Source: an uncultured bacterium
GTDB taxonomy: Bacteria; Acidobacteriota; Blastocatellia; Pyrinomonadales; Pyrinomonadaceae
Direction: 5' to 3'
NCBI GenBank assembly: GCA_965653675.1
Contig: CBFHBA010000021.1
Span: 2,386 to 66,385, forward strand
Length of the DNA: 64,000 bases
Of the stretch, positions 8,166 to 46,047 are shown piece after piece. Numbering within the stretch: position 1 is the stretch's first letter; the number at the start of each line of letters is the position of its first letter. The notes under the pieces were generated by a model. It was not told the origin of the DNA, ran no database searches, and saw only the letters and a program-made list of their open reading frames with translations. The translations under genes were made by a program, and so were the position numbers.

Positions 8166-8167
8166 AG

Positions 8168-19718: not shown

Positions 19719-19753
19719 GATGCGTCACCTCCTCTCGTTTTTTCTTCGCACGA

Positions 19754-20140: not shown

Positions 20141-20155
20141 CCCCCCTGACCTGAG

Positions 20156-22253: not shown

Positions 22254-23885
22254 TTACTTCTTCGGCTGTGGCTCGTCTTTCCGGTGACACTCGGCGCACT
22301 GGAACATCGAGATGTCCCCGAGATTGATCGGGTGCTGAAATGGCTTGTTTGGTTTATGGCAGAAGTCGCACTTGCGGTCGGCGAGCGAGCCCAAGTCGAC
22401 CGGGTGAATGAACGGCCCGGTCTTTACAGACGCCTCGGGATTGGCGGAGTCGTAGATCATCGTGTGACAGATGTTGCAGTTGTTGCTGATGACTTTGCCG
22501 TCTTTGCTGACGTGATCGCCGTCGTGACAACGGAAACAGCCTGAGAAATAAAGATGGCCAATGTTGTTCGGGTGCGTCTGCCAATCTGTCTTCATCTCCG
22601 GAAAGAAATAAGTCTGAAAGATGCGCTGCACTTCGGCAATCGCGCCGTCCAGGGCCTGGCGTTTTTGGGAATAAACATCCGGATAGTTCTTGCTGTAGAA
22701 CTCAGTAAGCCCGGCCGCAATGTCCGCGACCGCTTGCGGCGTCGTGTCGTACGGCCGGCTCAACATTTCGACTGCCTTCTTCTTTAGATAAGGCAGCGAT
22801 GGATCCAATCTTCCCGCGACGAACGCGAGATCGACTGCAACATCCGGCGGTTGATAGACATGCGCAGGCCGGTTATGACAATCGACGCAGTCCATACGAC
22901 GCCTGCTTCCATTCGCGATCTGCTCCGCGGTTAGCGGCCGGTTGCGATCGTAATACTCTGTAACTTTGCCGCTGCGATCTTTGATCCGCACCCACGGAAT
23001 CACCTGGCGTCGATCATCAATCGAAATGTAAGTAATTTCGTTGGCGATGTTCATGTGCCAGTGAATGCCGGTCACGAGTCCCGTCTGTGGACTGCCGCCC
23101 CCTACGTTGATCAGCATGCGTCGCTGACGAAGCGTATTGTGTTCGTCATAGCCATAACGGTTGAAGACTTTGAGCTGCGCGCCGAAAAACTTTTCGGGCC
23201 AGTGACATTGTTCACAGGTTTCCTGCGCCGGCCGCAGATTGTGGACCGGCGAACCAATTGGCCGCGAATACTTTTTGAATGTAACGGAATAAAGTTGGTA
23301 CGCGCCGGAAAGTTTCGAGCGCACATACCAGCTCGCGCCCGGTCCGACGTGACAGCCCACGCAGCCAACCCGTGCATGCGCGCCGGCGAGATACGCAGTG
23401 TACTCGGGCTTCATCACCGTGTGACAGGTCTGCCCGCAAAAATTGACCGACTCAGTGTATTCGTAGCCGCGATAACTGCCGAACGCACTCGCGGAAACAA
23501 ACACGAAAGTTATGACTAAGAAAACGAAGAAGGCCTTGCGTGAACGCGGATCGTTCAAATCGAGTTTTGGATACGCTGGCTGCTCGCCCGGCGCGGCACG
23601 ATGGCGGCGGCGGCGCTCAAGCACCCTTCCGAGAATCGTGACGAACAATCCGAAGATCAGGATTGAAGGAAAGATGATGTAAGTGAGAATGCCGAGATAA
23701 GGGTTCTCGGCGTTGGAGGTGACTTCTATCAGAAAGAGCAGGACAACGCTGACAAAACTCGCGATAACGATCGCGCCGCCGACCAGGCTAACGTAATTGC
23801 GGAACAGGCTGGGTGACTTGGCCGCTGGTTCGGCGGGGCCTGCGTCGTCCGGGGCCTTCGTGATGTGCAGCTTTTCGTTGCTCAT
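22254..23885 (-). CDS. inner-membrane NapC/NirT-related multihaem cytochrome (ImcH-like)
   Basis: 543 aa with three N-terminal hydrophobic helices. Seven CXXCH motifs (CVGCH, CEQCH, CVDCH, CFRCH, CNICH, CDFCH, CAECH) plus one CX3CH (CGQTCH). Confidence 0.7.
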   Translation of the reverse strand: MSNEKLHITKAPDDAGPAEPAAKSPSLFRNYVSLVGGAIVIASFVSVVLLFLIEVTSNAENPYLGILTYIIFPSILIFGLFVTILGRVLERRRRHRAAPGEQPAYPKLDLNDPRSRKAFFVFLVITFVFVSASAFGSYRGYEYTESVNFCGQTCHTVMKPEYTAYLAGAHARVGCVGCHVGPGASWYVRSKLSGAYQLYSVTFKKYSRPIGSPVHNLRPAQETCEQCHWPEKFFGAQLKVFNRYGYDEHNTLRQRRMLINVGGGSPQTGLVTGIHWHMNIANEITYISIDDRRQVIPWVRIKDRSGKVTEYYDRNRPLTAEQIANGSRRRMDCVDCHNRPAHVYQPPDVAVDLAFVAGRLDPSLPYLKKKAVEMLSRPYDTTPQAVADIAAGLTEFYSKNYPDVYSQKRQALDGAIAEVQRIFQTYFFPEMKTDWQTHPNNIGHLYFSGCFRCHDGDHVSKDGKVISNNCNICHTMIYDSANPEASVKTGPFIHPVDLGSLADRKCDFCHKPNKPFQHPINLGDISMFQCAECHRKDEPQPKK

Positions 23886-25823
23886 CTACTCGGCTGTTTC
23901 GGGTGACGTTTCGTTGGGGGCGGGGCTTTCCGACGCTGTCAGGGTTTGTTTGTTCATCTGCTCGAATGCCAGCTCGTGCTCTTCACGATAAAGCTCTTCC
24001 GAAACTCGACCATCAATGAACGCGAAGTTTACCGGATAAACGTCGGGATCGAAAATCACATGATAGAAGTGCCAGACAATGATCGCGAGCGTCGCCAGCA
24101 CCGCTTCGTAAAAGTGAATCGCGAGCGCGATGTCGATCCACCAACGCGCGAGGAAACCGAATATGCCAATCTTGAACCAGATCATCAGGCCCGTTAGGCC
24201 CATGATGAAAGTGCCCCAAATGACGGCCCAATATTCAGCTTTTTCCGCATAACCGAATCGCGCGATCTTCGGTTTGATGCTCCGCAGACCGAGATAGTAA
24301 GCAAAGTTTTCCAAAAGGTCCTTGACGTCAGTGACACGTGGGAACATGTCTTTTACCCAGCGCCGGCCGTCTTTTGTGAGCGCGAGATATCCGATGTGAT
24401 AGACGCCGACGACAATCATCACAACCGCCGCCACGCGGTGAATGATACGGCGTAGATACTCATTTGATCCCAATAGCCACGCCAGCAATGAATCCGGATA
24501 CTGCAAAGCAAAGCCGCTCAGCACGAGCACGATAAAGCTGGTTAACAACAGCCAGTGTTGAAGTCTTTGATTGGCCGTGAGCCGCACAATTGTCCGGCGC
24601 TCTCGCCGCCTCGCGGCGACTTTAAGACGCCAGACAAGCACGTTGTGCAAAGCCATGCCGCCAATCGTCAAAAAGATCAGCGGCAGATAAATCCAGCGCA
24701 CGATGTGTATTCCGCGCGCCGACAAATCACGCGTCATCACGTTGGAAACGAGTTCAGAAGTGAGATGAACCTTTCCTTTCGTGAAGTTTCCGCTGGCGCC
24801 AATGTGACATTGTCCGCAGGTTTGTTGGAGGTTCTTCGCGTTAACCATTGAACGCGGGTCGGAAGAAGGCAGGATGTTGTGTACGCCGTGGCAACTCGCA
24901 CAATTCGCGACGACTTTTGATCCGAGCTGCGAGGCCAAGCCGTGATAGCTGTCTTTGTAACTCGCAACGCGGCCGCTGGCGACGCCGAACTCCTGGGTTA
25001 GAGTTACGCCTTCATGACACTTCGCACAGCTTTCAGTGGCGACGGCCGCTGACGCAAGATTTTTGTCGCCGTCGAACGGCTGCGTGATGTTGTGAATGCC
25101 ATGACAGTCAGTGCACACCGGCGCGCGCGAAACACCGCGCGCGACCGCCTGGCCATGCACACTCTGCATGAATTCTGTCGCTTCGGCACTGTGACACTTG
25201 CCGCACGTGTTGGGAATATTCACTTTTGCGATCGAGGATTGCGCGTTGGACGCGGGGAGAATTTCGTGCGCGCTGTGGCAATCAGTGCAGACAGCTGCAC
25301 TCACGTTGCCGCGCGCCATCGCTTTCGCATGCACGCTCTCGCGATACGAGAGGAATACTTGACTGCTGATTCCGCTGCCCTTCATCACCGATTGATCGCC
25401 GTGACAGCGTCCGCAGGTCGCAGCGATGTTTGCCCGATTGACGGGTGAAGCGGGATCATTCGCGGGCAGCATCGTTGTCATGTCGTGATTGCGTGCGTGG
25501 CAATCAAGACAACTTGCTGCCTTCGCCCCGCTCTGTAACGCTTGCGCGTGGAAACTGTGGCCATAACCGCTGTGCTGCGTCGTGTGGAATAACGAACCAG
25601 CGAGATATGGAAGTTGCTTTCCCGCGCCATGACATCCCTGACATTGAAGAGTGGGTGAAGGAATAGGAAACGCTTGCGCGTTGGGTCCGCCAATCACTGC
25701 GCCTTCGTTTGGCTGCACTGTTGTCGGCGACGAGGTTTGATTCGATTGAGCGGCGACCGAAAAAACAACAGGGAGTATCGACAAGCCGAAAAGAATGAGA
25801 ATTAGAGCGGCATGTCGTCGCAT
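23886..25823 (-). CDS. nonahaem c-type cytochrome fused to an FdnI/HydC-type dihaem cytochrome b membrane domain (CbcL-like)
   Basis: 645 aa with a signal peptide and 9 CXXCH motifs in the N-terminal ~370 aa. The C-terminal half has multiple TM helices with conserved His and an RLQHWLLLTSFIVLVLSGFAL-type helix. Confidence 0.8.
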   Translation of the reverse strand: MRRHAALILILFGLSILPVVFSVAAQSNQTSSPTTVQPNEGAVIGGPNAQAFPIPSPTLQCQGCHGAGKQLPYLAGSLFHTTQHSGYGHSFHAQALQSGAKAASCLDCHARNHDMTTMLPANDPASPVNRANIAATCGRCHGDQSVMKGSGISSQVFLSYRESVHAKAMARGNVSAAVCTDCHSAHEILPASNAQSSIAKVNIPNTCGKCHSAEATEFMQSVHGQAVARGVSRAPVCTDCHGIHNITQPFDGDKNLASAAVATESCAKCHEGVTLTQEFGVASGRVASYKDSYHGLASQLGSKVVANCASCHGVHNILPSSDPRSMVNAKNLQQTCGQCHIGASGNFTKGKVHLTSELVSNVMTRDLSARGIHIVRWIYLPLIFLTIGGMALHNVLVWRLKVAARRRERRTIVRLTANQRLQHWLLLTSFIVLVLSGFALQYPDSLLAWLLGSNEYLRRIIHRVAAVVMIVVGVYHIGYLALTKDGRRWVKDMFPRVTDVKDLLENFAYYLGLRSIKPKIARFGYAEKAEYWAVIWGTFIMGLTGLMIWFKIGIFGFLARWWIDIALAIHFYEAVLATLAIIVWHFYHVIFDPDVYPVNFAFIDGRVSEELYREEHELAFEQMNKQTLTASESPAPNETSPETAE

Positions 25824-25998: not shown

Positions 25999-26313
25999 TT
26001 ACCGGAGAGACTTGATATAGCCGACCAGAGCCTTCGCCTGATCCGGCGTGACGCCTCGTTCTTTGAAGGCCGGCATGTTGGGCGGCTTCTCCATCGTCTT
26101 GCCGTCGAGAACGGTTTGGATCAAGACATCATCAGCCTTGGTCTTGTCCAGCTTCTTTTCGGCAGTTGCGCCATGGCACATTTTGCACTTCGTGTTGTAG
26201 AGCGTTGCCGTATCGTCATCGGTCGCGCGTGCGGGTGTCGAAACGATCAGAAATGCGCCTGCAACAACCAGCGCTGCCACGACGAAAATCACTTTGAATA
26301 ACGGGCCCATCAT
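25999..26313 (-). CDS. monohaem class I c-type cytochrome
   Basis: 104 aa with a signal anchor, a single CKMCH and a distal Met candidate (PNMPAF). Confidence 0.8.
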   Translation of the reverse strand: MMGPLFKVIFVVAALVVAGAFLIVSTPARATDDDTATLYNTKCKMCHGATAEKKLDKTKADDVLIQTVLDGKTMEKPPNMPAFKERGVTPDQAKALVGYIKSLR

Positions 26314-26714: not shown

Positions 26715-27293
26715 TCACGCCGCCGCTTTCTTATGGCAAGCTACGCATTTCTTTGAAGTGGGCGGCGCCGGATCGAGTGTCGGCCGCGCCTTCACCACGT
26801 CGTCATGGCAACCACCACAGTTGCGGTGAAATGCCTGCTGATTCGTCATGATGGTTTCCTCTGTAGCACCTTCAAACTTCAGACGTGGAATCTCAGGCAG
26901 CAACTTCGGCTTCTGATCGGCGCGCGCGTGACAATCAGTGCAGATGACAACAGTCACGCTCGGATCTTTCGCAAGCAGATCAGCCGTTAGAGTAGTCGTG
27001 CGATCGGCCGGCCAAACAGTCTTGTGTGGCGGATGCTTCACCGCTTCCGCCGCAGGCTGCGCCGTGTGATGACACTCGACGCATTCGAGTTTCTTCGTGC
27101 CGTCGGCACTGCGATTCTCGGTGATGTGCTTCATGTGATTGAAACTCACAGGACCGAGCTTCGCCTCTTTTGCGAGCACGATTGTTTCAGGCGGCGCCTT
27201 TCCACCCTGCGCCGATGCCGGCGTCGGACTTAAGCGCATCGAAACCAGCGCCAGCGAAAAAACTAGAAATGCAAAGATCGCAATTACTTTCAT
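26715..27293 (-). CDS. tetrahaem cytochrome c3-family protein
   Basis: The start is taken at ATG 27293 (MKVIAIFAFLVFSLALVS...), preceded by GAGAGG. Motifs: FNHMKH, then CVECH, CTDCH, CGGCH and CVACH. Confidence 0.8.
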   Translation of the reverse strand: MKVIAIFAFLVFSLALVSMRLSPTPASAQGGKAPPETIVLAKEAKLGPVSFNHMKHITENRSADGTKKLECVECHHTAQPAAEAVKHPPHKTVWPADRTTTLTADLLAKDPSVTVVICTDCHARADQKPKLLPEIPRLKFEGATEETIMTNQQAFHRNCGGCHDDVVKARPTLDPAPPTSKKCVACHKKAAA

Positions 27294-27334: not shown

Positions 27335-28366
27335 TCAAAAGCGCCACGCTGCTCCGGTGTGGCACCGTTTACAACTCGTAAAGTCGTCACCGCCAAATGC
27401 GCGTTTGCCGTTGTGACAAGTCATGCAACTTTGACCACGGCCGGTCGCGTGATGATTGAGCGGCTCAGGCGTCGTGACTTGTCGTCGCTGCGCCTGACCG
27501 GGACGGACGTCGTGACATTCGCTGCACGTCACCTTCTCGTGCTTCGCATGGCTGAATCCCACGCGAAAGGCCGGCATCATCATGGGCGTACGCGCGTAGC
27601 CACCGAGTTGATGACAGGTTCCGCACGAAGAAATGTCGCGCCCACCGGATTGTGCGCGTGGCGTGTGACAACGAAAGCACGTCGTGTGCGCATTGAAATC
27701 AGCGGGAATCGTCATCGCGACGCCGCTGCGCGCAGGTTTGTGACAAGTCGCGCAGCTTACACTTCCCATGCTGACATGACGAGCGTGATCGAACTTCATC
27801 CTAAAACTCATCAATCGCGACGGAAATGGCTTAGTGGCTCCCGACTTCGGATCGGTGTGACAGATGGTGCAAATCGGACTATCCGGCGACGAGAACTGCT
27901 GCGCGTGACATCCTGCGCACGGAAGATGCTGTGACGCACCAGGACGTTTCGGCACCGACGCGTTCGAATCGCGACGATGGCACAGCAAGCAAGGCAGGCG
28001 CGAATGATTGCGGCTACTGTGCTGAAACTTCGAGTAGTCGAGTCCTTCGGGAAACTGCATTTGTGTCTGTGGCGACTGCTCTCCAAAACCTGTCGAGGCG
28101 TGAGAATTAGATGCGCGGAACACACCAAAACCGAGCACGAGAATGACGAACAGCGCCGCAGGCGCGAAATATTTATAGAATCGTAAGCCCGAATTGATTT
28201 GTTGCGGCTCTGCCGTCTGATGCCCGGTGGTGGCTCCGCCCCACCGGTCGACGTGCGTAACACGTTCTTGGGCTGCGCCCATTATTCGGGCGAAGCCCGG
28301 GTATCGAATTGATAAGCCTGATCGGAAGGTCAAAGACCTTCCGCATATCAGGCGGCCCAGCCGCAT
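27335..28366 (-). CDS. nonahaem cytochrome built from three c7-type trihaem modules
   Basis: 9 CXXCH motifs arranged as three modules, each of the form F.H..(.)H followed by 3 x CXXCH (FQHSSRNH..., FDHARH..., FSHAKH...). The start at 28366 is chosen to follow the upstream stop at 28384. One TM/signal anchor. Confidence 0.75.
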   Translation of the reverse strand: MRLGRLICGRSLTFRSGLSIRYPGFARIMGAAQERVTHVDRWGGATTGHQTAEPQQINSGLRFYKYFAPAALFVILVLGFGVFRASNSHASTGFGEQSPQTQMQFPEGLDYSKFQHSSRNHSRLPCLLCHRRDSNASVPKRPGASQHLPCAGCHAQQFSSPDSPICTICHTDPKSGATKPFPSRLMSFRMKFDHARHVSMGSVSCATCHKPARSGVAMTIPADFNAHTTCFRCHTPRAQSGGRDISSCGTCHQLGGYARTPMMMPAFRVGFSHAKHEKVTCSECHDVRPGQAQRRQVTTPEPLNHHATGRGQSCMTCHNGKRAFGGDDFTSCKRCHTGAAWRF

Positions 28367-28383: not shown

Positions 28384-29610
28384 TCAAAGCGTCTTCTTCG
28401 GTTTCGGTGGCGGAATCGCCTGGGGATGGCTTTCGGGAATTGGTCCTTTTCCGAATGTCACATGACATTTTGTGCAGGTAAAATTCGGATCTTTCTTCTT
28501 CGCGTCGATTTCAAAATTCAGGATGCCGCCATCGTCGGTCGTAGTAGTGATGTGACAACCATCCGCGCCACCACAGGACTTGATCGGCACCTTCATTGTT
28601 TTGAAATCGACGGTGCTGAAAGTCGTAGTGTCAACCTTGTGACAATTCAGACAGTTCAAATCGGGGTGCTCGCCGCCTTCGTGACGAAATCCGCCCGCCG
28701 AAATGCGTCGACTCCAACGCGCAAGCATGGTTGCGTCAGCGCCCATGCTCGCGACCAGCGCCGCGTCAAAATCAGTCTGGGTCGGTTTTGGCGGTTGCAG
28801 CTTATGACAGACTTCGCAGTTCTTTGGCTCGGGCGCGATCCCGGAATCAGCGCTGTGACAAGTGAAGCAGATCGTGTGGCTGTTCGGAATCGTCTTGAAT
28901 GTTCCCTTCTTCAGCCAAAAGTTGTCGCCGAGGTTCTTCGGCGGTTTAGTCACATACTCTTCGCTTGATTGTCCCTGCGGCTGATACGTCTGATGACAAA
29001 CGGGGCAGCTCGCTGGGATCGCCGACTTCTTTTGCTGAAACGAAACGGAAACAAAGCGCAATGGTGCGTTCAACCAGCTCACGACGTCGATATGTTTGTC
29101 GTGCGGAAAGCCCACGCCGAATTCGGAAACAAACTCGCGACGCTTCAGTTTTGGATCAGTAAGATCGCCGAGGCTCGGAAACAGCCAACGCGCCGTATCT
29201 TTTGGCGTAACTGCGATATGACAGTTTGAGCAGATCGCCGGCGCCGGCTGTTCTCGCGCAAAAAATTGCGTGCGATGGCATTCAAGACAACTTGAGTGCT
29301 CAGGAAAATCCGAGACATCGGCGAAAGCCGCGGCGCCTTTGCGCACGAGGTTCCAATTTTTCGAAGGCACTTTGTGACATGAATTGCACGCGAGCTTTTG
29401 ACCCACCACATGCGTCGTATGCGAGAACGTTGTGTAGTCGTTCTTGGGCGTAGGCGGCTTTGGTTTTTGCTTGCGAGTCCGCGAGCGACGCTGGGCGCTG
29501 GACACAATGCCGACTGACGCCTCGAGAAAGCAGAGCGCCGTAACACAAACCAGAATTATGAGTGCAACCCGCCCAATGATCGTCAAAATGTGAGACAGTC
29601 TCCGCCTCAT
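28384..29610 (-). CDS. nonahaem cytochrome built from three c7-type trihaem modules (one CX4CH site)
   Basis: 8 CXXCH motifs plus CGGADGCH. The modules are headed by FSHTTH, FPHDKH and FRHEGGEH. N-terminal signal anchor. Confidence 0.75.
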   Translation of the reverse strand: MRRRLSHILTIIGRVALIILVCVTALCFLEASVGIVSSAQRRSRTRKQKPKPPTPKNDYTTFSHTTHVVGQKLACNSCHKVPSKNWNLVRKGAAAFADVSDFPEHSSCLECHRTQFFAREQPAPAICSNCHIAVTPKDTARWLFPSLGDLTDPKLKRREFVSEFGVGFPHDKHIDVVSWLNAPLRFVSVSFQQKKSAIPASCPVCHQTYQPQGQSSEEYVTKPPKNLGDNFWLKKGTFKTIPNSHTICFTCHSADSGIAPEPKNCEVCHKLQPPKPTQTDFDAALVASMGADATMLARWSRRISAGGFRHEGGEHPDLNCLNCHKVDTTTFSTVDFKTMKVPIKSCGGADGCHITTTTDDGGILNFEIDAKKKDPNFTCTKCHVTFGKGPIPESHPQAIPPPKPKKTL

Positions 29611-29615: not shown

Positions 29616-31007
29616 TTAACCAACGTCGGTCTGTTGTTGCCGGGCTTCGATTTGCCTGATCTTTAAATAAACGAGCGTTGCCAAAAATAAAATGAACAGG
29701 AGTGAAACTGCCAGTCCCTTTCGCCGGAAACTAAGTTCGGCGAGCGCGCCGACGCCAGCCTGGTAACCCTTGTTCGCCGCATCCATCCCAGGTTCGATGA
29801 CTTTATTGACCTCAGCCGTTGACGAAGAATGAATCAAGACTCGCGCATGCGTCAGCGCATCGGTCGCGCCCTTCAAATCGAATTTCGGCTTGCTAACTTC
29901 CATGCCTTTGCGTTCGGCCAGGTTTAAAATCGCCGTCGACTTGTCGATGCTGGCGATCAGCTGGTCGATGCGCGAACGCATTGCCCCCGCGGCCACAAAT
30001 CCTTTGTCACCCTGCGTGTGGCAGTTGATGCAAAGCGCGCCTTGCTGTGTGCCAATCAGCGCGTCGCCGGGTTTCGGAATGGCGTGATTGCCATGACAAG
30101 TGATGCACTCGCCGAGTTGCTTGTCGTCGAACGCTTTTTTGTGCGGACTTGTCTGGAACAACTCAGCCTGTCGCGCGTGACATTGGCCGCAAACATTGGC
30201 GACCGAAGCAATCCCGGGCGGCGTCGCGCCATGATTGCCATGACAATCGTTACAAGTCGGCGCCGACAAATCCTGTTTGTCGTAGAGCGCTTTCGCGTGA
30301 ACGCTCAGCTTGTAATTGTCGAACTGGTTCGTCGGAATCCCGAACGGCTTCATGTAGTCGGCGCTCGCGTGACACTTCGCGCACGTGTTCGCAACGTTGC
30401 TCGGATAAACAGATGAAAGTGGATCGCTAGGCGCGCGAATGCCATGGACGCTGTGGCAACTTATGCAGGTTGCGACGCGTGTCTCGCCTTTCTCCTTCAA
30501 CAAACGGCCGTGGACGCTGGTGTAATACTCGCGTTCCTGGTCAACGCGCAGCGAAGGGTTGAACCGCTTCATCAGACTGGCGTCGCTGTGACACTTGCCA
30601 CAATAGGCCGGGATGTCGAGCGTTTTTGGTTTTCCCAGATAACCTTTGCGAACGTCGTGCGCAGCTTCCGCGGTGGTCGCGTTCGGATCACCACCATGGC
30701 AGTCGTTGCACATTAACCCGCGCGCTTTATGAATGTCGTTGTCGAACAACTTTGCGGGGGCGCTGATGCGTGGATCGGCTAGCTTGGCGTGACACTCGAT
30801 GCAAGAGTTTTTCTGTTGGGCTACGCCAAGCGTAAAGACGGTCAGAACTGCAATAACAACTCCAGCGACAGTCAGTCCTCTGTGTCTCTGTGCGATCTCG
30901 GTGTCTCTGTGGTGAGCATCCTCGCGCGACATATCACCACAGAGACACGGAGATCCACCGAGGCACAGAGACTTGATCCCGTACCGTTTCAAGATTCCTT
31001 CGCTCAT
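29616..31007 (-). CDS. nonahaem c-type cytochrome with a C-terminal transmembrane anchor (candidate cytochrome c subunit of the adjacent Rieske/cyt b complex)
   Basis: 9 CXXCH motifs and a C-terminal helix LAVSLLFILFLATLVYLKI. Codons 12-44 are encoded by a palindromic repeat, and ATG 30932 is an alternative start. Confidence 0.75.
   Translation of the reverse strand: MSEGILKRYGIKSLCLGGSPCLCGDMSREDAHHRDTEIAQRHRGLTVAGVVIAVLTVFTLGVAQQKNSCIECHAKLADPRISAPAKLFDNDIHKARGLMCNDCHGGDPNATTAEAAHDVRKGYLGKPKTLDIPAYCGKCHSDASLMKRFNPSLRVDQEREYYTSVHGRLLKEKGETRVATCISCHSVHGIRAPSDPLSSVYPSNVANTCAKCHASADYMKPFGIPTNQFDNYKLSVHAKALYDKQDLSAPTCNDCHGNHGATPPGIASVANVCGQCHARQAELFQTSPHKKAFDDKQLGECITCHGNHAIPKPGDALIGTQQGALCINCHTQGDKGFVAAGAMRSRIDQLIASIDKSTAILNLAERKGMEVSKPKFDLKGATDALTHARVLIHSSSTAEVNKVIEPGMDAANKGYQAGVGALAELSFRRKGLAVSLLFILFLATLVYLKIRQIEARQQQTDVG
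30877..30972. repeat. palindromic element (CACAGAGAC family) lying in frame inside the 5' end of the cytochrome gene
   Basis: A perfect 15-bp inner stem (gtgtctctgtggtga at 30901-30915 versus tcaccacagagacac at 30934-30948) plus imperfect outer arms. Length 96 nt, which is 32 codons. Confidence 0.8.
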
Positions 31008-31056: not shown

Positions 31057-32121
31057 TCACTTCGCGACGTATCCAACGATCGTCATCACGGCGATGTAAA
31101 CGACTGCAACTATGCCCACGATATTAAAGATCAAGTGCTTGCGGCGATTCGCGGGATCGCGATCAATAAACGGCACAACAAACAAAAGCGCGGCGATGAT
31201 GTTGAATGCCATGATCCCCAGCACTTCGCCGTCCATTCCGAGAATTTTTGCCGGCAACCACTTCAATGTCTGAAACATAAAAAGGAAGTACCACTCCGGC
31301 TTGATGCCGGCGGGCGCGGGCGCAAACGGATCAGCTTTCTCTCCCAGTTCCCACGGGAAAATTGCCGCGAGCGCTGCCAATACGCCGATAGCCAGAATCC
31401 AGCCGATCAAATCCCGCATGATGAAGTTCGGAAAAAACTTCATCCGGCGGTAGTTGTGTTCGTATTTCTTCGGCACGTGCATGCCGTGCAGTTGCACGAG
31501 CGCGACGTGCACGCCGAGAAACACGGTCGCAGTCGCAGGCAGCACGGCGACGTGAAAACCGAAGAACCGCGTCAGGGTCGCGCCGGTCACGTCGTCGCCG
31601 CCACGCAGAAAACGCAGCACCGGATGTCCCACGATGGGCACGACTCCGGCAATTTCAGTCCCGACCTTCGTCGCAAAAAACGCAAGCTTGTTCCAGGGCA
31701 AAAGGTACCCGCTGAACCCAAAACAGATCACGATGAAGAGCAGGAATACGCCACTGACCCAGGTAATCTCGCGCGGTTTGTGATAAGCGCGCAGAAAAAA
31801 GACGCTGAACATGTGAACGAACAGCGCCGCGATCATCAGGTTGGCCGACCAACTGTGAATCGAGCGAATCAACCAGCCGAACTTAACCTCGGTGATGATG
31901 AACTGAACGCTTTCGAAAGCGTTCTCAGCACTCGGGCGGTAGTAAAGCAGCAGGAGAATTCCAGTGACAACTTGCACGACGAACAGAAACAAGGTCATGC
32001 CGCCGAAGTAGTACCAGATCGAATGGCGCTGGAGGGGGACTTCCTTTTTGTCGGCGAGCTTTGTCAGCGTGCTAATCGACAGACGCTCGTCGAGCCAATT
32101 GGTCAGGGGCTGGATTCTCAT
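31057..32121 (-). CDS. cytochrome b (bc-complex, fused N- and C-terminal domains)
   Basis: The start is taken at ATG 32121 ([14 protein letters not shown]...). [37 protein letters not shown] and multiple TM helices. The upstream 31 codons of the ORF are repeat-encoded. Confidence 0.85.
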
Positions 32122-32141
32122 CGCTGAAAAGCAACCGGCTT

Positions 32142-32261
32142 TTCTGTAGCCCAGGCGTTTACCCTGGGAAAGCGTTGGAAGACTTCTGCAAAGCCTCCTT
32201 AGGGAGGCTTCCAATCATTTGATAAATCCGTGACCCAGCCGTAAACGGCTGGGCTACAGAA
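32142..32261. repeat. palindromic MITE-like element between the Rieske and cytochrome b genes
   Basis: ttctgtagcccaggcgtttaccctggg (32142-32168) versus cccagccgtaaacggctgggctacagaa (32234-32261) is 24/27 complementary. There is an inner hairpin aagcctcc/ggaggctt. Confidence 0.8.
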
Positions 32262-32266: not shown

Positions 32267-32743
32267 TTAACTGCGCGTTACCACCACATCGTCGCCGCGC
32301 GTGTTGACCTTGAACTCTTCCAAAGGCCTTGGCGGAGGGCCGCCGATGTTTTTTCCGCTCAAGTTGTATTGCCCGTTGTGACAGGCGCACCAAATCTGTT
32401 TCGTGTCTTCTTTGTACTGGACAATGCATTCCAGGTGTGTGCACACCGCCGAAAATGCTTTGAACTCGCCGGCCGCCGTATGGACCAGGATGCCGGGCTT
32501 GTTCCCGAATTTGAAGATTTTTCCTGAGTTCGGCGGCACCTCGCTTAGTTTCGCCGCCACGACTGAATTCTCCGCCGACTCGACAATTTGCGGCGGCGTC
32601 ATGAACTTGAGAATGGGATAGATGATCGCGCCCAAAGTCGCGACGGCGCTGGTGCCAAGCAGCCAATCGAGAAAGCTTCTGCGCGCTGGTGAGTGAGGCG
32701 CGCTGAGATCAGTTTTGGAGTTACGCCGAATGTCAGAGTTCAT
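32267..32743 (-). CDS. Rieske [2Fe-2S] protein
   Basis: 158 aa with a twin-arginine-like [10 protein letters not shown], plus CTHLEC and CACHNGQY cluster boxes. Confidence 0.85.
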
Positions 32744-32872: not shown

Positions 32873-35245
32873 CTATTCCTTGCGCCCAATGTAAACGCGC
32901 AGCGACATGTATGGCAGATGCGTGTGATAGTTCTGCGCGCGCGGAGCGTTCAGTGGAAACGTTCTCAGAAATCCATCCTCGTTGTAGTTGAAGTATTGAT
33001 AGCCCAGGTTCCAATCCAGATGACGATTCAATCGGATTGCGATTCTGCCTTCCGGCGATTGGAAACTCATCGGATAAGAAGTGATCAAGGTGCCGCCTTC
33101 GTTAGCCGGATTCTTGAGCACGCCATTAACAATTATGCCGCCCGGAATCGGAGTTCCTCCCGCTGGATCTGACAACCGATCGCCTTGGCCATTGTCTAGA
33201 TTGACGCGATACGAACCATAGAAGGACACGCGCCAATTTGGCCGCCACACGACGTCGCCGTAGAAGAAGTTGTTCCTCTGGAAGTACAACGCATGGCCGA
33301 AGTGGTGAAACACCGCCGCGGGTGCCGATCCCGTTGGCGGAATTACTTGATACACATAATCGATCGTCGCATCGCTGTTGACCCAGTTGTAGTTATAGCC
33401 AAAGCTAAGCGAGAGGTTATCTTTCACAACCCAATCGAGAGACGACTGGAAAATACGCGTCTTCAAATTAACTGCAAAATCCGAAAGCGACTCGCCGGCA
33501 ATCTCGGATGGGTTTGAGTTGTCGCGGATGATCATTCCCAGGTTGAGATTTACTCTCCGATTTGGGACCCATCTGCTTTTCGCGCGAAGGTTCGTGTAGT
33601 CGTAGTTGCCGATGCGCGTGAAGACGTTATCAGCCGTCCCGTGTTCAGCGTCGAAATAAACAGTCCAATTCTTTGTCGGCCGCATCCGAAAACCACCGAG
33701 GATCGCATGCGTATGGTTGTCTTCAGTTTCAAATTCCGGCGTTTCCAGTGTCGGAGCGTTGGAGTTCAGATGGTAACCCGAGAGCGTCTGCTCTTCGTGT
33801 CGGTGCCCGTAACGGTAGCCAAAATGGATGGAATAGTTATGGTTGAACTGGTAATCACCCTCAACTGTGTTTTGGTATTTACGGTAACTCGTAGTCTTGA
33901 ACTCTTGCAGGAAACTGAAGCTGCGCGTGTCCACTAAGCCCGCGGTAGTCCGCACTTGGAAGAAGTCGTTGAACGTTGCAAATCCGTCGATCGTGAAGTC
34001 TTCTACGCGGAAGGTATTCGAAATCCGCAGCTTGTCAGTTGCCAATATCGTCAACCCAACGTCACCTTGCGTATTTGGGCGCGACACCGACGACGGAATG
34101 TTATAGGCGCCCAGCAGCAACGTGTTGGGGGGGCCCGGCTGGCCGCTAATACGGCTATTGAAGTTGACTGCCGTTTCGTTTTCCAGAAAGACGGAGTTTG
34201 CAGTCGCCTTGCTGTAGATAAACCGTCCTGTGATATCGAACCGTTTCGCCAGCAACGTGTGCGCGCTAAGTCGCGTAAAGTCTACGCGACCGCGAGTGGG
34301 CTCTTGGCGGTTGAACGAGGTGAACCGCGCGACCGCAGACGAATTCGTTAGGTTATTCGGATTGATGTAAGCGGGGACGGTTGCGATCGCGTTGTCATCT
34401 TTGGACCAACGGATGCCGTGCAGGATCGTCCAATCGACTTTTCCGATTCTTCCTTCCGCGCCGAATCGCCAGTCGTTCGCCCGTGTGCGTGAATCAACCA
34501 GGGCCTGAAATTCGTTACCGCCCTGGTGATAGGTCGTGAAAAACGGACCGCTGTAATGTTCCGGCGAATAGCCGATGTTGAAACGGATCCACTCGTTCTT
34601 TGGCAGAAGCGTTAGATCAAAGTCGCCGAACTCGGTGCGCGTGTTGTAGCCATGCAGTCCAGTTATGGAGCTCGGCGGTACAGGAAAGTAATTTGTGCCC
34701 CCGGGCGTCCCAAAGACCCAATTGGGATTCACGATGTTGTTCAGAAAACGATAGTACTTTGCGCGTCGATAGTTCCCTTCGAACTTATACCACTCAGGTT
34801 TCTCTGCGCTGATCCGCATGCTGCTTGTGGGATCGGCGCCCCAGCCAGTAGCAGTCACGAGCAAGGTATCAAACAGACCGCCCTTACCTTCCTTTGCCCG
34901 CATCAGAAAACTGCTGTCGAACAAGCGCGGTCCGGCTTTGTAGCCCAAGTCGCTTCGGTATTTGCGCTCATCCCCATACACGCCGAGGCCGCGATACCCG
35001 ACTTCGAAGCTGGATGTCACGATGTAATCGCCTGCCTCATCGCCGGTCGTGGTCGACGTCGGAATCGTGTCTGTCTTTTTCGACGTTGCCTTTTTCGACG
35101 TTGCGCTCGTGTTCGACGTTGTGTTTTTGTTTTTTGACTGGTCATCAGTCGAACTCGGTTGCGCCGCTGCGACGCCGGCAAGTAACAGGAGGCCAAGAAC
35201 CACTACGGGAACCATCCGCAACCGCTTTATCGTGTTGCTATTCAT
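32873..35245 (-). CDS. large outer-membrane beta-barrel protein (MtrB/PioB-like by size, position and composition)
   Basis: The start is taken at ATG 35245 (MNSNTIKRLRMVPVVVLGLLLLAGVAAAQ signal peptide). About 790 aa, with a Ser/Thr/Lys-rich linker followed by Gly/Tyr/Asn-rich alternating beta-strand-like sequence. It lies directly downstream of the decahaem gene. Confidence 0.6.
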   Translation of the reverse strand: MNSNTIKRLRMVPVVVLGLLLLAGVAAAQPSSTDDQSKNKNTTSNTSATSKKATSKKTDTIPTSTTTGDEAGDYIVTSSFEVGYRGLGVYGDERKYRSDLGYKAGPRLFDSSFLMRAKEGKGGLFDTLLVTATGWGADPTSSMRISAEKPEWYKFEGNYRRAKYYRFLNNIVNPNWVFGTPGGTNYFPVPPSSITGLHGYNTRTEFGDFDLTLLPKNEWIRFNIGYSPEHYSGPFFTTYHQGGNEFQALVDSRTRANDWRFGAEGRIGKVDWTILHGIRWSKDDNAIATVPAYINPNNLTNSSAVARFTSFNRQEPTRGRVDFTRLSAHTLLAKRFDITGRFIYSKATANSVFLENETAVNFNSRISGQPGPPNTLLLGAYNIPSSVSRPNTQGDVGLTILATDKLRISNTFRVEDFTIDGFATFNDFFQVRTTAGLVDTRSFSFLQEFKTTSYRKYQNTVEGDYQFNHNYSIHFGYRYGHRHEEQTLSGYHLNSNAPTLETPEFETEDNHTHAILGGFRMRPTKNWTVYFDAEHGTADNVFTRIGNYDYTNLRAKSRWVPNRRVNLNLGMIIRDNSNPSEIAGESLSDFAVNLKTRIFQSSLDWVVKDNLSLSFGYNYNWVNSDATIDYVYQVIPPTGSAPAAVFHHFGHALYFQRNNFFYGDVVWRPNWRVSFYGSYRVNLDNGQGDRLSDPAGGTPIPGGIIVNGVLKNPANEGGTLITSYPMSFQSPEGRIAIRLNRHLDWNLGYQYFNYNEDGFLRTFPLNAPRAQNYHTHLPYMSLRVYIGRKE

Positions 35246-35338
35246 GACTTTTATCCTTGACTCAATGAACTCGATTAATGGCGAGCCGGGGCGCGCCAAA
35301 CACGGCGGCGGGCATGGCCCGCCGCCAGAGAATCCGCA

Positions 35339-36349
35339 TTAGCGGAAGAAGACCGGACTCGTGCGCGAACCATGAATCTTGATGTGACAAGCGGTGCAGT
35401 TCGCGTACTGCGCGTTTTGGTTGTGCGACGGTCCAGAGGGTTCAATCGCGCCGACATCGTGCGACAAACTATGGCAGGTCAGACAAAGCTGATTGACCGA
35501 GCTGTAGCGCAGCAACCGCGGATTCGCGGAACCGTGCGGTGTGTGACAAGCGGTGCAGCCTTCAGTCTTCACCGGCGCGTGTTCGTAGGTGAACGGCCCC
35601 TGCTTGTCAGCGTGACACTTGATGCAAGCTGCATCAGCGCCGGTCGCCAACCGCGTTTGTTTCAGCTCAAAGCCGCCATGCGGGTTGTGACAATCGCTGC
35701 AACGCATCGTGCCTTCCAGCACTTTGTGATGGAACGGCATATTGAATTGCGGCTTCACCTCGGTGTGACAGCTCTCGCAAAGCTGCGGGTCGTTCGCCCT
35801 TAACATCCGAGTCGTCGCGAAACCTGGCTTCTCCGCGTTGACGCTCGTCACTTGATAATTCGAACTGGCCAGGTTTCGACCAGCGACACCTGAGTGCGGC
35901 GAGTGACAATCCGTGCAGCCTATGTCGTTGCGCCAGTGTTCGCCACGACGGAAGTTATTGCGCTCTTCTTTGCCGGCGTGGCATGTCAGACAAATCTCAG
36001 AAGCTTCCTTCGGAGTCTTGTGCTTGAACGAAATGATCTTGGTGACGTCACCACCACCTTCGACGTGCGCCTGGCCCGGGCCGTGACACGATTCACATCC
36101 CGTCACTTTGTTTTTCCAATCGGCAATCTTTGCCAGTTCCGCGTGCGCAGTGTGCGAGTAGGCTTTGAATTGATCTTCGTGACAGTCTTTGCAGACTTCC
36201 GTGCCCACGTAGTCCGCAGGCAAAGGTTTGTCGTCCGTCACTGCGGAACGCGCGGTCGCTTGCGAGCTGCGCGCTCCGACTAGCCACACGACAACTGCCA
36301 ACGCTGCTGCCAGGAAGAGCGTTGCGTTGATTGTTTTCCTGAGTCTCAC
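35339..36349 (-). CDS. periplasmic decahaem c-type cytochrome (MtrA/DmsE/PioA/MtoA family-like)
   Basis: 336 aa with a signal peptide and 10 CXXCH motifs with MtrA-like spacing and C..CH.PHG(S/G) contexts. Confidence 0.8.
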   Translation of the reverse strand: MRLRKTINATLFLAAALAVVVWLVGARSSQATARSAVTDDKPLPADYVGTEVCKDCHEDQFKAYSHTAHAELAKIADWKNKVTGCESCHGPGQAHVEGGGDVTKIISFKHKTPKEASEICLTCHAGKEERNNFRRGEHWRNDIGCTDCHSPHSGVAGRNLASSNYQVTSVNAEKPGFATTRMLRANDPQLCESCHTEVKPQFNMPFHHKVLEGTMRCSDCHNPHGGFELKQTRLATGADAACIKCHADKQGPFTYEHAPVKTEGCTACHTPHGSANPRLLRYSSVNQLCLTCHSLSHDVGAIEPSGPSHNQNAQYANCTACHIKIHGSRTSPVFFR

Positions 36350-36474: not shown

Positions 36475-37212
36475 TCAATCACACATCACGGGTGACATTT
36501 GTGCTAAAGAGGCGAGCGCGTCGCTGTCGCGAATCCACATCAGATCCCGTTTGACATGGACGATCCCGTCGCGTTTCAGCGCGCTGAAAAGACGTGTCAC
36601 AGTTTCGCGTGACGCGCCGATTATTTGCGCAATCTCTTCCTGCGTCAGCCATATGCGAACGCGTATTCCTTCGTGGGTGACCTCCCCAAAATCACGACCC
36701 CAACGCGCAATCAGATGTGCCAGCTTTTCCAACGCCGATTCCGACAGCGCCAGCATGCGTGTGTGATCGATCAATTCACTGAACTGCCGGCTAAAGACCT
36801 CGAGCAGTTCCAGGCTGTAGCCATTTTGCCGAGAGATCAGATTCAGGAGGTCCTGACGCGAAATGAAATCGACACGCCCACCTTCCAACATCTCGGCGGT
36901 CGCCTCAAACGGCCGGCCCGTCAGACCGGCATAGAGCCCGAGAATGTCGCCGCCTCTCGCAATGCGGACGATTATCTTTTTGCCGTCGGCTGAAGAGATC
37001 GAGATCTTCGCGCGGCCTGATGACAGAACATAAACGCCGAGTGCGTTGTTGCCTTCGCGAAACACCACCGCGCTTCGCGGATAGATGCGACTGCGGGCTA
37101 CGCGATCAATGCCCGGCACAGCCCGCAAAGGTGAATTGAAGGGTAAGATTCGGGAAGCCGCAATTCGATTTTCACTCTCAGTCACTGCGGCTTGGCGCAC
37201 GACGTTCATCAT
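36475..37212 (-). CDS. Crp/Fnr family transcriptional regulator
   Basis: 245 aa with a cNMP-binding-like beta-roll (VFREGNNALGVYVLSSGRAKIS...) and a C-terminal HTH (TQEEIAQIIGASRETVTRLFSALKRDGIV). Confidence 0.85.
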   Translation of the reverse strand: MMNVVRQAAVTESENRIAASRILPFNSPLRAVPGIDRVARSRIYPRSAVVFREGNNALGVYVLSSGRAKISISSADGKKIIVRIARGGDILGLYAGLTGRPFEATAEMLEGGRVDFISRQDLLNLISRQNGYSLELLEVFSRQFSELIDHTRMLALSESALEKLAHLIARWGRDFGEVTHEGIRVRIWLTQEEIAQIIGASRETVTRLFSALKRDGIVHVKRDLMWIRDSDALASLAQMSPVMCD

Positions 37213-37483: not shown

Positions 37484-38596
37484 ATGTCACAAGTGCTTAG
37501 TGTGAATGCGATAGAACCGCAGCCGGGGCTGAACACGTTCCGGCCGCGCGACGCATCGGCGCGCACCCGCAACCTGAAACATATGATCGGGAACACGCCA
37601 CTGCTCGCCATACGATATCTGTATCGCGGGCGGGAACGGGTGATCTATGCCAAAGCCGAGCATATGAACATGACCGGTAGCATCAAGGACCGGATGGCCT
37701 TTCACATTTTGAAAAAGGCTTATCAGGAAGAACGGATCAGGCCCGGCGACACGATCGCTGAAGCGACCAGTGGCAATACCGGAATTTCATTTGCGGCGAT
37801 CGGCCGCGCGTTGGGACACCAGGTCGTGATCTTCATGCCCGATTGGATGAGCGAAGAACGTGTCCATCTGATCAAGTCACTGGGGGCGAAGATCATTCCG
37901 GTGCGGCGTGATCAGGGCGGCTTTGTTGGCAGCATTCGCATGGCGCAGGGTCTGGCTGCTGAAAAGCCGCACGTGTTTTTGCCCGCCCAGTTCGCAAACG
38001 AAGCCAACGTCGAGGCGCACGAGAAGACCACCGGTCCCGAAATCTGGTGGCAGCTCTACTTCCATTCGCTCATCCCCGACGCCTTTGTCGCGGGTGTGGG
38101 AACGGGCGGTACGATCATGGGCGCGGGAAAGTTTCTGCGCGAGCGCAATCCGGAAATCAAGCTCTACCCACTTCAACCATCCGAATCACCGACGCTCTCA
38201 GCCGGACGAAAGGTCGGTCATCATCGCATCCAGGGAATCTCAGATGAGTTCATTCCGCCAATTCTGCAACTGGATCAGCTCGATTCTGTTGTCAGTATCA
38301 GCGACGGCGATGCGATCTTGATGGCTCAGAAACTGGCGGCTCAGCTTGGCCTTGGTGTCGGCATCTCCTCAGGTGCGAATTTCCTCGGCGCGATGATGGT
38401 GCAGGATGAAATGGGAGATGACGCGGTCGTCACGACTGTCTTTCCCGACGACAATAAAAAGTATTTGAGTACGGACCTGTTAAGGACAGAGAAACCGCGT
38501 GCAGATTATCTCGCGCCCAATGTCGAACTTCTGAGTTTCGAAGCCCTGAAGCGCGTCTGTTACACCTGTTTTGATGAAGAACCTACAGTGTTTTGA
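37484..38596 (+). CDS. cysteine synthase family PLP-dependent enzyme
   Basis: 370 aa with [16 protein letters not shown] (PLP lysine), SGNTGIS and GVGTGGTI blocks. Confidence 0.8.
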
Positions 38597-45400: not shown

Positions 45401-46047
45401 TGAAAAAGAGCGTGTGGATTGTTGGCGGTGATGGCTGGGCCTATGACATCGGCTATGGCGGGTTGGATCACGTGCTCGCGAGTGGCCAGGATGTGAACAT
45501 TCTCGTGCTCGACACGGAAGTCTATTCCAACACTGGTGGCCAGGCTTCGAAGGCGACCCCCCTCGGCGCAGTCGCAAAATTTGCCGCCGGCGGCAAGCCG
45601 ACGATCAAAAAAGATCTCGGTATGACGGCGATGCGTTACGGGAACGTCTATATCGCGCAAATCGCGATGGGCGCGAACGATACGCACACTGTCAAGGCGT
45701 TTCTTGAGGCGGAAGCGCATCCGGGGCCGTCGCTCATCATTGCCTACAGCCAATGCATTGCGCACGGCATCGACATGGCGAAGGGAATGCATCAGCAGAA
45801 GCTTGCGGTGGAATCGGGTTACTGGCCGCTCTATCGCTTCAATCCGGCGTTGGAAAACGAAGGCAAGAATCCGTTTCAACTGGATTCGCACGATCCGAAA
45901 ATCCGGCTTGAGGATTACATCTACACCGAAGGACGCTATCGGATGTTGCAGCGCAGCGATCCGGAGGCGGCGAAGACACTGCTGGCACGCGCGCAAGAAT
46001 CTGTAAATCATCGTTGGGCGCAATACAAGAAGTTGGCGGGCGCATGA
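42478..46047 (+). CDS. nifJ: pyruvate:ferredoxin (flavodoxin) oxidoreductase
   Basis: 1189 aa. N-terminus [33 protein letters not shown], two ferredoxin CxxCxxCxxxCP motifs ([24 protein letters not shown]) and a TPP domain with [16 protein letters not shown]. Confidence 0.95.
   Translation: [1189 protein letters not shown]

Follow-up and report, generated by a model that had tools for sequence, protein, structure and literature searches.

Does a gene pair in an uncultured soil bacterium encode a route for electrons across the outer membrane and, if so, what feeds it and which way do the electrons run? Mtr-type conduits are the best understood Gram-negative route for electrons across this membrane. 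The pair in question lies at 32873-36349, both open reading frames (ORFs) on the minus strand and the coordinates exact, in a 64-kb stretch of DNA (the window) from a member of the Pyrinomonadaceae (Acidobacteriota, class Blastocatellia). An initial annotation had read it as an MtrA/MtrB-like porin-cytochrome pair, in an MtrAB-only arrangement of the kind associated with Fe(II) oxidisers. We find that the two products, given below, very probably form an MtrAB-type outer-membrane electron conduit, and it is likely that other modules of the same gene cluster wire this conduit to the quinone pool. Outward flow of electrons is the direction toward which we lean, if only slightly. Taken as a whole, an MtrAB-type conduit with a cluster-encoded path to the quinone pool and net outward flow is the best explanation that we can offer, and we hold it with moderate confidence.

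35339..36349, minus strand: MtrA/DmsE-family periplasmic decahaem c-type cytochrome of 336 amino acids (aa) with 10 CXXCH (TIGR03508, PDB 6r2q_A, haem register)
32873..35245, minus strand: divergent MtrB-like outer-membrane beta-barrel, 790 aa from the ATG (hhalign, AlphaFold 2 [AF2], and Foldseek; no Pfam or NCBIfam family)

The decahaem carries exactly ten CXXCH motifs in its 336 aa (at residues 53, 85, 120, 145, 191, 217, 242, 265, 289, and 318), as the initial annotation had it, and all 20 of its Cys sit within them; 20,000 shuffles of the same residues gave a mean of 0.08 CXXCH and a maximum of 3. The repeated C..CH.PHG context singled out earlier occurs in two copies, at 217 and 265, and its C..CH.PHS variant once, at 145. 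Against the NCBIfam model for DmsE family decahaem cytochromes (TIGR03508), the protein scores 238.6 bits, past the curated cutoff of 192.2. The model for Geobacter OmcK (NF041028, GSU2203) comes near that score at 232.6 bits, under its own cutoff of 325, and the NrfB, NrfH, and NapC models of NCBIfam remain far under theirs. The top sequence match in the PDB is 6r2q_A (E 3.4e-30), which is MtrA in the solved Mtr complex of Shewanella baltica. The molecule name given to this chain by its depositor is a known mislabel; elsewhere, proteins of this sequence family go by "DmsE family decaheme c-type cytochrome." An alignment was made of the decahaem, nine orthologues encoded in related loci, and nine reference proteins of the MtrA/MtrD/DmsE type, which come from Shewanella, Paraferrimonas, Ferrimonas, and Marinobacter. 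Each of the ten CXXCH occupies the same columns as its counterpart in Shewanella MtrA and the other references. Nine His beyond these motifs are fully conserved, in line with bis-His haem ligation, and a tenth is almost so. Identity to the gammaproteobacterial MtrA/MtrD/DmsE-type proteins is 30-35%, and the acidobacterial decahaems have an insertion of ~23 aa between haems 4 and 5. At the N-terminus, a hydrophobic stretch with ...SSQA-T after it would fit a Sec signal. Membership of the MtrA/DmsE family, as first proposed, is established on sequence grounds by the TIGR03508 score, the match to 6r2q_A, and ten haem motifs in register.

What is the protein encoded next to it? Counted from the ATG at 35245 (the mechanical ORF starts at a TTG, 35299), it begins MNSNTIKRLRMVPVVVLGLLLLAGVAAAQ, a signal-peptide-like N-terminus with a hydrophobic segment (Kyte-Doolittle) at 5-33, and its layout is a signal peptide, a disordered S/T/K-rich linker of ~40 aa, and then the barrel. 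The length of ~790 aa, the secretion signal, and the richness in Gly, Tyr, and Asn had been described correctly: the composition is 8.4% G, 8.4% T, 8.0% N, 7.5% S, and 5.2% Y, with zero Cys. The expectation that curated profiles would recognise both partners held for the decahaem, which passes TIGR03508, and failed for the barrel, which has no match to PF11854 (Pfam, E ≤ 10) or to TIGR03509 or any other NCBIfam model (E ≤ 0.01). Two barrel homologues with 62% identity clear the PF11854 threshold by a narrow margin (25.4 and 24.0 bits vs. 23), and this model touches 3 of 66 diverse members of the family. Likewise, a phmmer search with the barrel and hmmsearch with two family profiles found nothing among the PDB sequences. 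With the HMMER filters off, the family profile hidden Markov model (HMM) gives 35.8 bits to Shewanella MtrB and 1.5 bits to a TonB-dependent receptor; the speed filters probably hid the MtrB match in the PDB sequence searches.

Profile-profile comparison points to MtrB more strongly. We obtained true MtrB references by rebuilding an MtrA fragment from the PDB alignment and searching with it, which gave three mtrA-mtrB or dmsE-dmsF loci (Shewanella, Ferrimonas, and Marinobacter). In hhalign, a diverse alignment of the window barrel family matched an alignment of these three MtrB/DmsF barrels with 96.9% probability (E 1.5e-10) over 515 columns reaching both C-termini, where the two families have a common (Q/H)NY(H/N)AH...S(L/x)R motif. 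Reversed and block-shuffled profiles reached at most 1.2%. A genuine TonB-dependent receptor of the window (55692-57905, plus strand; CarboxypepD_reg and Plug domains), used as a negative control in the barrel comparisons, gave ~1.5-1.6%, and Pfam scans of the barrel itself found neither Plug nor TonB_dep_Rec domains. C46..C49 is invariant among the three MtrB/DmsF references, and the Cys-free barrel has no such N-terminal CXXC. The motif is said, in work of Wee and colleagues from 2014, to be the MtrB signature in metal-reducing Gammaproteobacteria. The barrel family is large, with >1,300 clusters at 90% identity among scored candidates and at least 1,296 representatives at 50% identity; its members are mostly annotated "hypothetical protein," and the named ones come from metagenome-assembled genomes (MAGs) of Pyrinomonadaceae and Blastocatellia.

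Structure prediction agrees with this homology. A first AF2 model, made from a shallow alignment of close homologues, had a predicted local distance difference test (pLDDT) of 72.5, and Foldseek placed TonB-dependent receptors ahead of it by E-value and MtrB best by template-modelling score (TM-score). A second model, made from 114 diverse sequences, reached a pLDDT of 86.2 and a predicted TM-score of 0.80. Its top PDB match was MtrB, 6r2q_B (E 7.6e-17; the next match, 9e-12), with a TM-score of 0.67 (TMt) vs. ≤0.48 for others, TonB-dependent receptors included. The model is one large unplugged barrel downstream of the disordered linker, so that barrel topology, left as a check by the initial annotation, is predicted, with MtrB the closest solved structure. 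A TonB-dependent receptor or generic porin is a very unlikely identity for the barrel, given the missing plug, the hhalign result of ~1.5% to a real receptor, and the first rank of MtrB in Foldseek. Judged by profile and model together, the barrel is a real but distant MtrB homologue, outside the MtrB/PioB family by curated definition.

Are the two genes kept together? A scan with one genome per species gave 191 barrel matches, and we compared the loci of the best 80 of these, all from MAGs of Blastocatellia, Pyrinomonadaceae, or "Chloracidobacterium". The closest relative among these 80 is a Pyrinomonadaceae MAG with aa identities of 85% (barrel) and 95% (decahaem), which assigns the window to this family. 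The spacer between the decahaem and barrel genes is 93 bp in the window, and in 72 of the 73 loci with enough upstream sequence a co-directional decahaem gene ends <400 bp before the barrel gene. A 10-CXXCH gene precedes the barrel even in family members that are only 36% and 24% identical to the window barrel, and the order of decahaem then barrel is also that of the Shewanella, Ferrimonas, and Marinobacter loci. Copy number varies: locus L011 (JBGQGG010000012.1, ~10001-21600) holds an apparent tandem of decahaem plus barrel, a CRP gene, a second decahaem, and then a Rieske/cytochrome b module, and several MAGs have two separate clusters (e.g., L047 with L080 and L055 with L062).

With what is the pair associated? 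The description of an MtrAB-only arrangement does not stand. The genes from 37212 down to 22254 all lie on the minus strand with short spacers, and the pair heads an operon-like cluster of ~14 kb with a Rieske/cytochrome b module, four multihaem cytochromes, a monohaem cytochrome c, and CbcL-like and ImcH-like proteins. In addition to the pair, the features are as follows (TM, transmembrane).

36475..37212, minus strand: CRP/FNR-family transcription regulator (Pfam cNMP_binding, HTH_Crp_2, and Crp)
32267..32743, minus strand: Rieske [2Fe-2S] subunit with an N-terminal membrane anchor (PF00355, PetC-like TM anchor)
31057..32214, minus strand: cytochrome b with b6 and subunit-IV-like parts fused, ~8 TM (PF00033, PF13631, PF00032)
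29616..31007, minus strand: nonahaem c-type cytochrome with a C-terminal TM helix (9 CXXCH, hydrophobic segment 429-454)
28384..29610, minus strand: octahaem cytochrome of the c3/nine-haem type, presumed periplasmic (8 CXXCH; PDB 19hc, nine-haem cytochrome, 1.2e-4)
27335..28282, minus strand: nonahaem poly-c7-type cytochrome, presumed periplasmic relay (9 CXXCH; PDB 3ov0, 8e-13)
26715..27293, minus strand: tetrahaem cytochrome with signal peptide (4 CXXCH, c3/c7 Pfam matches)
25999..26313, minus strand: monohaem class-I cytochrome c, 104 aa, signal peptide (PF13442/PF00034)
23886..25823, minus strand: CbcL/MtrH/MtoC-type inner-membrane protein (signal peptide, 9 CXXCH, PF01292, multihaem Pfam families, TIGR01583)
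22254..23885, minus strand: ImcH-type inner-membrane cytochrome (3 N-terminal TM, CGQTCH, 7 CXXCH, PF03264 NapC/NirT-like core)

Two forms of the cluster recur among the relatives. Type B (31 loci) has, in order, the decahaem, the barrel, an 8-haem and a 9-haem cytochrome, often a 4-haem one, the monohaem cytochrome, and the ImcH-like protein. Type A (24 loci, the window included) has two additions: the Rieske, cytochrome b, and 9-haem genes behind the barrel gene, and a CbcL-like gene ahead of the ImcH-like one. Gene counts refer to the loci long enough to judge, 19 of type A and 29 of type B. The type-B core (decahaem, barrel, 8-haem, 9-haem, monohaem, and ImcH-like) is kept in 28-29 of 29 loci, with the ImcH-like, monohaem, and 8-haem genes in all 29. 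The octahaem gene is also in 19/19 type-A loci and directly follows the barrel in clusters without the Rieske module, and the tetrahaem gene is present in 18/19 type-A and 21/29 type-B loci. The membrane-anchored nonahaem accompanies the Rieske and cytochrome b genes in all 19 type-A loci and is presumed to be the cytochrome c subunit of their complex. The Rieske subunit has its best NCBIfam similarity to b6f/bc1 Rieske subunits. The cytochrome b, whose probable start is the ATG at 32121, stays below the NCBIfam cutoffs for cytochrome b6 (232.9 vs. 325) and ExtP (NF040969; 214 vs. 290); the predicted Rieske/cytochrome b assembly is a complex in the general sense, the equivalog of neither ExtP nor b6. 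Some orthologues of the membrane-anchored nonahaem (29616-31007, minus strand; also in L008 and L009) have a conserved Cys/His-rich N-terminal extension, …LCLCG…HHRDTEIAQRHRG…, which precedes a signal-anchor-like segment and reflects either a later true start or a cytoplasmic metal-binding tail.

The remaining cytochromes resemble periplasmic and inner-membrane carriers of other bacteria. The poly-c7 nonahaem, whose start is uncertain (the mechanical ORF begins at 28468), scores 48.3 bits against nanowire_3heme (TIGR04257; cutoff 40), and its match 3ov0 is a Geobacter cytochrome c family protein, which we take to be the dodecahaem GSU1996. The monohaem cytochrome is similar in the PDB to the class-I c domains of QcrC and Kuenenia c552, and MtoD was not among its PDB matches at E ≤ 1. 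The CbcL-like protein has its nine CXXCH at residues 61-336 and a HydC/FdnI-type dihaem cytochrome b domain with several TM segments at ~407-627 (TIGR01583 region, about 412-624); the ImcH-like protein has TM segments at ~30-59, 62-90, and 115-139 and its CX3CH (CGQTCH) at residue 150. Their predicted architectures match those published for CbcL and ImcH (PMC6295460). The two genes are contiguous, 0 bp apart, in the same cluster as the MtrAB-like pair, and the presence of an ImcH-like gene there contradicts an earlier survey in which imcH was never adjacent to mtrAB or mtoAB (PMC6295460). At the other end, the CRP/FNR regulator gene, co-directional with the decahaem gene, precedes it by 125 bp, and many related loci have a CRP homologue ~1.9-2.0 kb ahead of the barrel gene. 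The regulator has a single Cys and is therefore no oxygen-sensing Fe-S FNR. Scans for promoter and terminator consensus sequences over 20-38 kb gave counts equal to the shuffle expectation and were uninformative.

How might these parts work together? The outer-membrane module is homologous to MtrAB, PioAB, MtoAB, and DmsEF and would work likewise: an MtrA-like decahaem "wire" would be sheathed by an MtrB-like barrel of ~28 predicted strands, giving a continuous haem chain across the outer membrane. The c3/c7-type cytochromes with eight, nine, and four haems and the monohaem cytochrome c would serve as periplasmic relays. Up to three alternative links may reach the quinone pool, namely the ImcH-like protein (encoded in every relative), the CbcL-like b/c fusion, and the Rieske/cytochrome b complex with its membrane-anchored nonahaem. 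The quinone of the class Blastocatellia is menaquinone. In the outward order, electrons would pass from quinol to an inner-membrane module, on to the periplasmic multihaem cytochromes, into the decahaem within the barrel, and finally, under oxygen limitation, to an acceptor such as Fe(III)/Mn(IV) oxides, humics, or a partner cell. Because the cluster has no dedicated MtrC-like surface cytochrome, the exit point would be the terminal haem of the decahaem itself.

That no MtrC/OmcA-like cytochrome is adjacent, as stated in the initial annotation, was borne out by the family models. None of the neighbouring genes satisfies an MtrC/OmcA model (best score, 16 bits vs. 209 for TIGR03507; PF22111 and PF22112 not reached), and the generic pentahaem-domain model PF22113 alone is touched by cluster proteins. 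Orthologues of the neighbouring cytochromes show no conserved lipobox. We considered the 8- or 9-haem protein as an MtrC homologue and rejected it by the lack of an MtrC/OmcA HMM match and of a lipobox and by its PDB similarity to periplasmic c3/c7 cytochromes; either protein may have a nonhomologous surface role.

Which way would the electrons flow? Three features of the locus point outward: the ImcH-like gene linked in 29/29 type-B loci, the periplasmic partners of the Geobacter/Desulfovibrio c7/c3 type, and a typical low-oxygen gene set in the window (pyruvate:ferredoxin oxidoreductase [PFOR], a 2-hydroxyacyl-CoA-dehydratase-like pair, an ADP-forming acyl-CoA-synthetase-type protein, and FeoB). 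ImcH homologues have so far been found only in Fe(III) reducers (PMC6295460), and the context as a whole (ImcH-like, poly-c7, PFOR) mildly favours outward transfer. The lean of the initial annotation toward Fe(II) oxidisers is weakened by this partner and also by phylogeny: MtoA and PioA do not form function-specific clades, and neither phylogeny nor the absence of MtrC diagnoses direction (PMC8805035). We give outward flow slightly more than half of the weight, inward flow clearly less, and other readings the remainder. The inward account, possible though distinctly less probable, is electron uptake of the PioAB/MtoAB type, in which Fe(II) or another reduced solid would be oxidised at the decahaem and electrons would run via periplasmic and monohaem cytochromes to a terminal oxidase, some of them going "uphill" to quinone via the CbcL/MtoC-like protein and a reversed Rieske/cytochrome b complex. 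It draws on the lack of an MtrC/OmcA homologue and of any conserved lipoprotein cytochrome, as in PioAB and MtoAB; on a conserved class-I monohaem cytochrome in the position that MtoD has within mtoABD clusters; on the barrel having no N-terminal CXXC of the kind in gammaproteobacterial metal-reducer MtrB; on the occurrence of the CbcL/MtrH/MtoC family in both reducers and oxidisers (PMC6295460); and on PioA/PioB homologues reported in Acidobacteria (PMC10654088). However, its ImcH-like partner, constant across type-B loci, belongs to a family implicated so far only in quinol oxidation, the monohaem cytochrome has no MtoD match, and the window has low-oxygen heterotrophic genes and, adjoining the cluster, neither carbon-fixation nor dedicated oxidase genes.

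Two other accounts give the pair a different substrate or no conduit role. A DmsEF- or Ext-like conduit would serve a specific soluble or extracellular substrate and not minerals, either through an outer-surface non-haem reductase or with oxyanions such as selenite and tellurite. Oxyanion reduction has been proposed for Geobacter extHIJKLMNOPQS, whose gene content is comparable (multihaem cytochromes, a Rieske/cytochrome b pair, and a porin-like protein; PMC5877670). The cytochrome b reaches 214 bits on ExtP, the membrane-anchored nonahaem weakly matches ExtM, and DmsEF shows that conduits can feed noncytochrome terminal enzymes; in the Ferrimonas locus (L084), a molybdopterin enzyme directly follows the barrel gene. 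We nevertheless consider this account improbable: neither the window nor the related loci examined have a gene for a molybdopterin enzyme, a rhodanese, or another terminal reductase within the cluster or beside it, the ExtP score is under the curated cutoff of 290, and the Rieske/cytochrome b module is missing from about half of the clusters (31 of type B vs. 24 of type A). Even less probable, to the point of being very unlikely, is that the 790-aa protein serves plain transport, as a TonB-dependent receptor or large porin, and that its neighbour happens to be an NrfB-like periplasmic carrier of a reductase. The many TonB-dependent receptors among the Foldseek matches, ahead of MtrB by E-value with the shallow-alignment model, the missing curated family of the barrel, and the partial NrfB/NrfH-like Pfam and NCBIfam matches of the decahaem would fit such a pairing. 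Yet the barrel has no Plug or TonB_dep_Rec domain, although the genuine receptor of the window shows one; hhalign gives 1.5% to that receptor vs. 96.9% to MtrB; the high-confidence model has MtrB as top match and TonB-dependent receptors at a TM-score of ≤0.48; adjacency holds in 72/73 loci and in relatives of 24% identity; and NrfB/NrfH scores fall far under their cutoffs while TIGR03508 is passed.

The following points weigh against the preferred account of an MtrAB-type conduit with net outward flow. The barrel escapes both PF11854 and the NCBIfam models, its sequence identity to MtrB is just 11-12%, and ~28 strands vs. 26 in MtrB is a provisional figure counted from the DSSP string; threading of the decahaem through the barrel is proposed by analogy. 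The studied MtrAB-only systems (PioAB and MtoAB) work inward, and no surface cytochrome was identified in the cluster. The Rieske/cytochrome b complex could serve reverse electron flow, and the class-I monohaem cytochrome and the CbcL/MtoC-type protein also occur in Mto clusters of Fe(II) oxidisers (PMC6295460, PMC10654088). All of the relatives found are uncultured MAGs.

How does the cluster compare with known systems? With Shewanella MtrAB (PDB 6R2Q), MtrDE, and DmsEF it has in common the decahaem family, the order of haem motifs, the conserved distal His, and the order of decahaem and barrel genes, and the barrel, homologous to MtrB by profile-profile comparison, has MtrB as its best structural match. 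It differs from MtrAB in its low identity (~30-35% for the decahaem, ~11-12% for the barrel) and in a barrel missed by PF11854 and TIGR03509, with ~28 predicted strands against 26, a ~40-aa S/T/K-rich linker, and no Cys; in the ~23-aa insertion of the decahaem; and in having no MtrC/OmcA partner and no CymA, the inner-membrane partners here being ImcH-like, CbcL-like, and Rieske/cytochrome b proteins. Compared by description, PioAB of Rhodopseudomonas palustris TIE-1 and MtoAB(D)-CymA/MtoC of Sideroxydans and Gallionella likewise combine a decahaem and a barrel without an MtrC-type protein. The window barrel is close to PioB in size, as had been noted, and its cluster resembles Mto clusters in having a CbcL/MtoC-type protein and a monohaem class-I cytochrome. 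Unlike PioAB, the cluster has no high-potential iron-sulfur protein (PioC), and its monohaem c has no detectable similarity to MtoD in the PDB; what further sets it apart from both PioAB and MtoAB is an ImcH-like protein that is universally present and a host from a heterotrophic soil acidobacterial lineage.

The inner-membrane and periplasmic parts point instead to Geobacter. The ImcH-like and CbcL-like proteins have the domain architectures of their G. sulfurreducens counterparts (ImcH, three TM, CX3CH, and seven CXXCH; CbcL, nine haems and a HydC/FdnI cytochrome b), and the poly-c7 nonahaem matches the Geobacter structure 3ov0 at 8e-13. To our knowledge, Geobacter outer-membrane conduits (OmaB/OmbB/OmcB, ExtABCD, and others) are generally held to be unrelated to MtrAB, whereas the module here is MtrAB-type. 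Geobacter imcH and cbcL are presumably unlinked, whereas their window counterparts are contiguous and inside the conduit cluster. The clustering of a Rieske/cytochrome b pair with a porin-like protein and multihaem cytochromes has one precedent that we could find, extHIJKLMNOPQS of Geobacter (ExtO, Rieske; ExtP, cytochrome b; PMC5877670), although the present cytochrome b falls short of the curated cutoffs for ExtP and b6. Within the Acidobacteriota, Mtr homologues have been noted in general terms (PMC8787282; PMC10654088), and Bryobacterales (Acidobacteriia) have MtrCAB, the "Group 5" of Baker et al. 2022, which resembles the present family in being an Mtr-type conduit of this phylum with a lineage-specific extra periplasmic cytochrome beside mtrB (PMC8805035). 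Those clusters, however, have MtrC and were recovered with standard Mtr queries (PMC8805035), whereas the present family belongs to the class Blastocatellia, has no MtrC, and has a barrel unrecognised by curated models. A full-text literature search aimed at the topic found no description of this Blastocatellia barrel family or cluster architecture.

Other genes of the window deserve mention. The cluster is flanked by the single-chain PFOR (42478-46047, plus strand), with the ferrous iron transporter FeoB (38707-40767, minus strand) and a pyridoxal-phosphate-dependent enzyme (37484-38596, plus strand) also among its flanks; the closest relatives (L001-L003) retain all three and have FeoA as well. 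Farther away, two adjacent genes of the HGD-D family (6858-8063 and 8060-9451, both plus strand) resemble the D component of 2-hydroxyglutaryl-CoA dehydratase; such enzymes are usually oxygen-sensitive and are unexpected in a lineage regarded as aerobic. A 912-aa protein (1588-4326, minus strand) has an N-terminal GNAT domain followed by CoA-binding, succinyl-CoA-ligase-like, and ATP-grasp_5 domains, the domain set of an ADP-forming acyl-CoA synthetase/Pat-like protein acetyltransferase in an unusual order. After a gap of 100 bp downstream of the ImcH-like gene, a gene of the same orientation (20156-22153, minus strand) encodes a 665-aa fusion of a GCS2 (glutamate-cysteine-ligase family 2) domain and two C-terminal CBS domains, and a few kb downstream of the cytochrome cluster a PAS histidine kinase is paired with a sigma-54-dependent response regulator (16420-19039, minus strand); a similar sigma-54 activator lies near a distant homologous cluster (L086). 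Two long ORFs, of 381 aa (13844-14989) and 645 aa (59087-61024), both on the plus strand, match no Pfam family at E ≤ 1e-5.

What does the cluster mean for the Blastocatellia? It is a divergent branch of a known conduit system in new genomic wiring and introduces no new principle. The wiring is a hybrid, joining a Shewanella-type outer-membrane module to Geobacter-type ImcH, CbcL, and poly-c7 proteins and to a Rieske/cytochrome b complex whose link to the pair is conserved in about half of the clusters. This arrangement makes two questions concrete and open to test, namely the amount of energy that extracellular respiration can conserve and whether a single conduit covers several redox-potential windows. 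A bolder proposal, which we put forward tentatively and think doubtful, is that Blastocatellia carry a lineage-wide, hitherto unrecognised super-operon for extracellular electron transfer (EET), with an MtrAB-like pair and no surface cytochrome, wired to three quinol:cytochrome c oxidoreductases (ImcH-like, CbcL-like, and Rieske/cytochrome b with its nonahaem subunit). If the Rieske/cytochrome b complex does feed the conduit, or is fed by it, the result would be a Q-cycle-coupled, redox-potential-tiered route to extracellular acceptors or donors, and such an EET route would escape present-day annotation of iron genes, since MtrB/PioB HMMs do not recognise the barrel. The distribution of Mtr-type systems is usually mapped with MtrB/PioB and DmsE HMMs; curated barrel models largely miss this family, and iron-cycling surveys that rely on them would therefore under-count Blastocatellia. 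Members of this class are abundant, nominally aerobic bacteria of dry and nutrient-poor soils. The cluster suggests that such common "aerobic" soil bacteria are able to exchange electrons with extracellular minerals and, if functional, it would change how Pyrinomonadaceae, now seen as strict aerobes, are regarded and bring a major soil lineage into the redox cycling of Fe, Mn, and humics.

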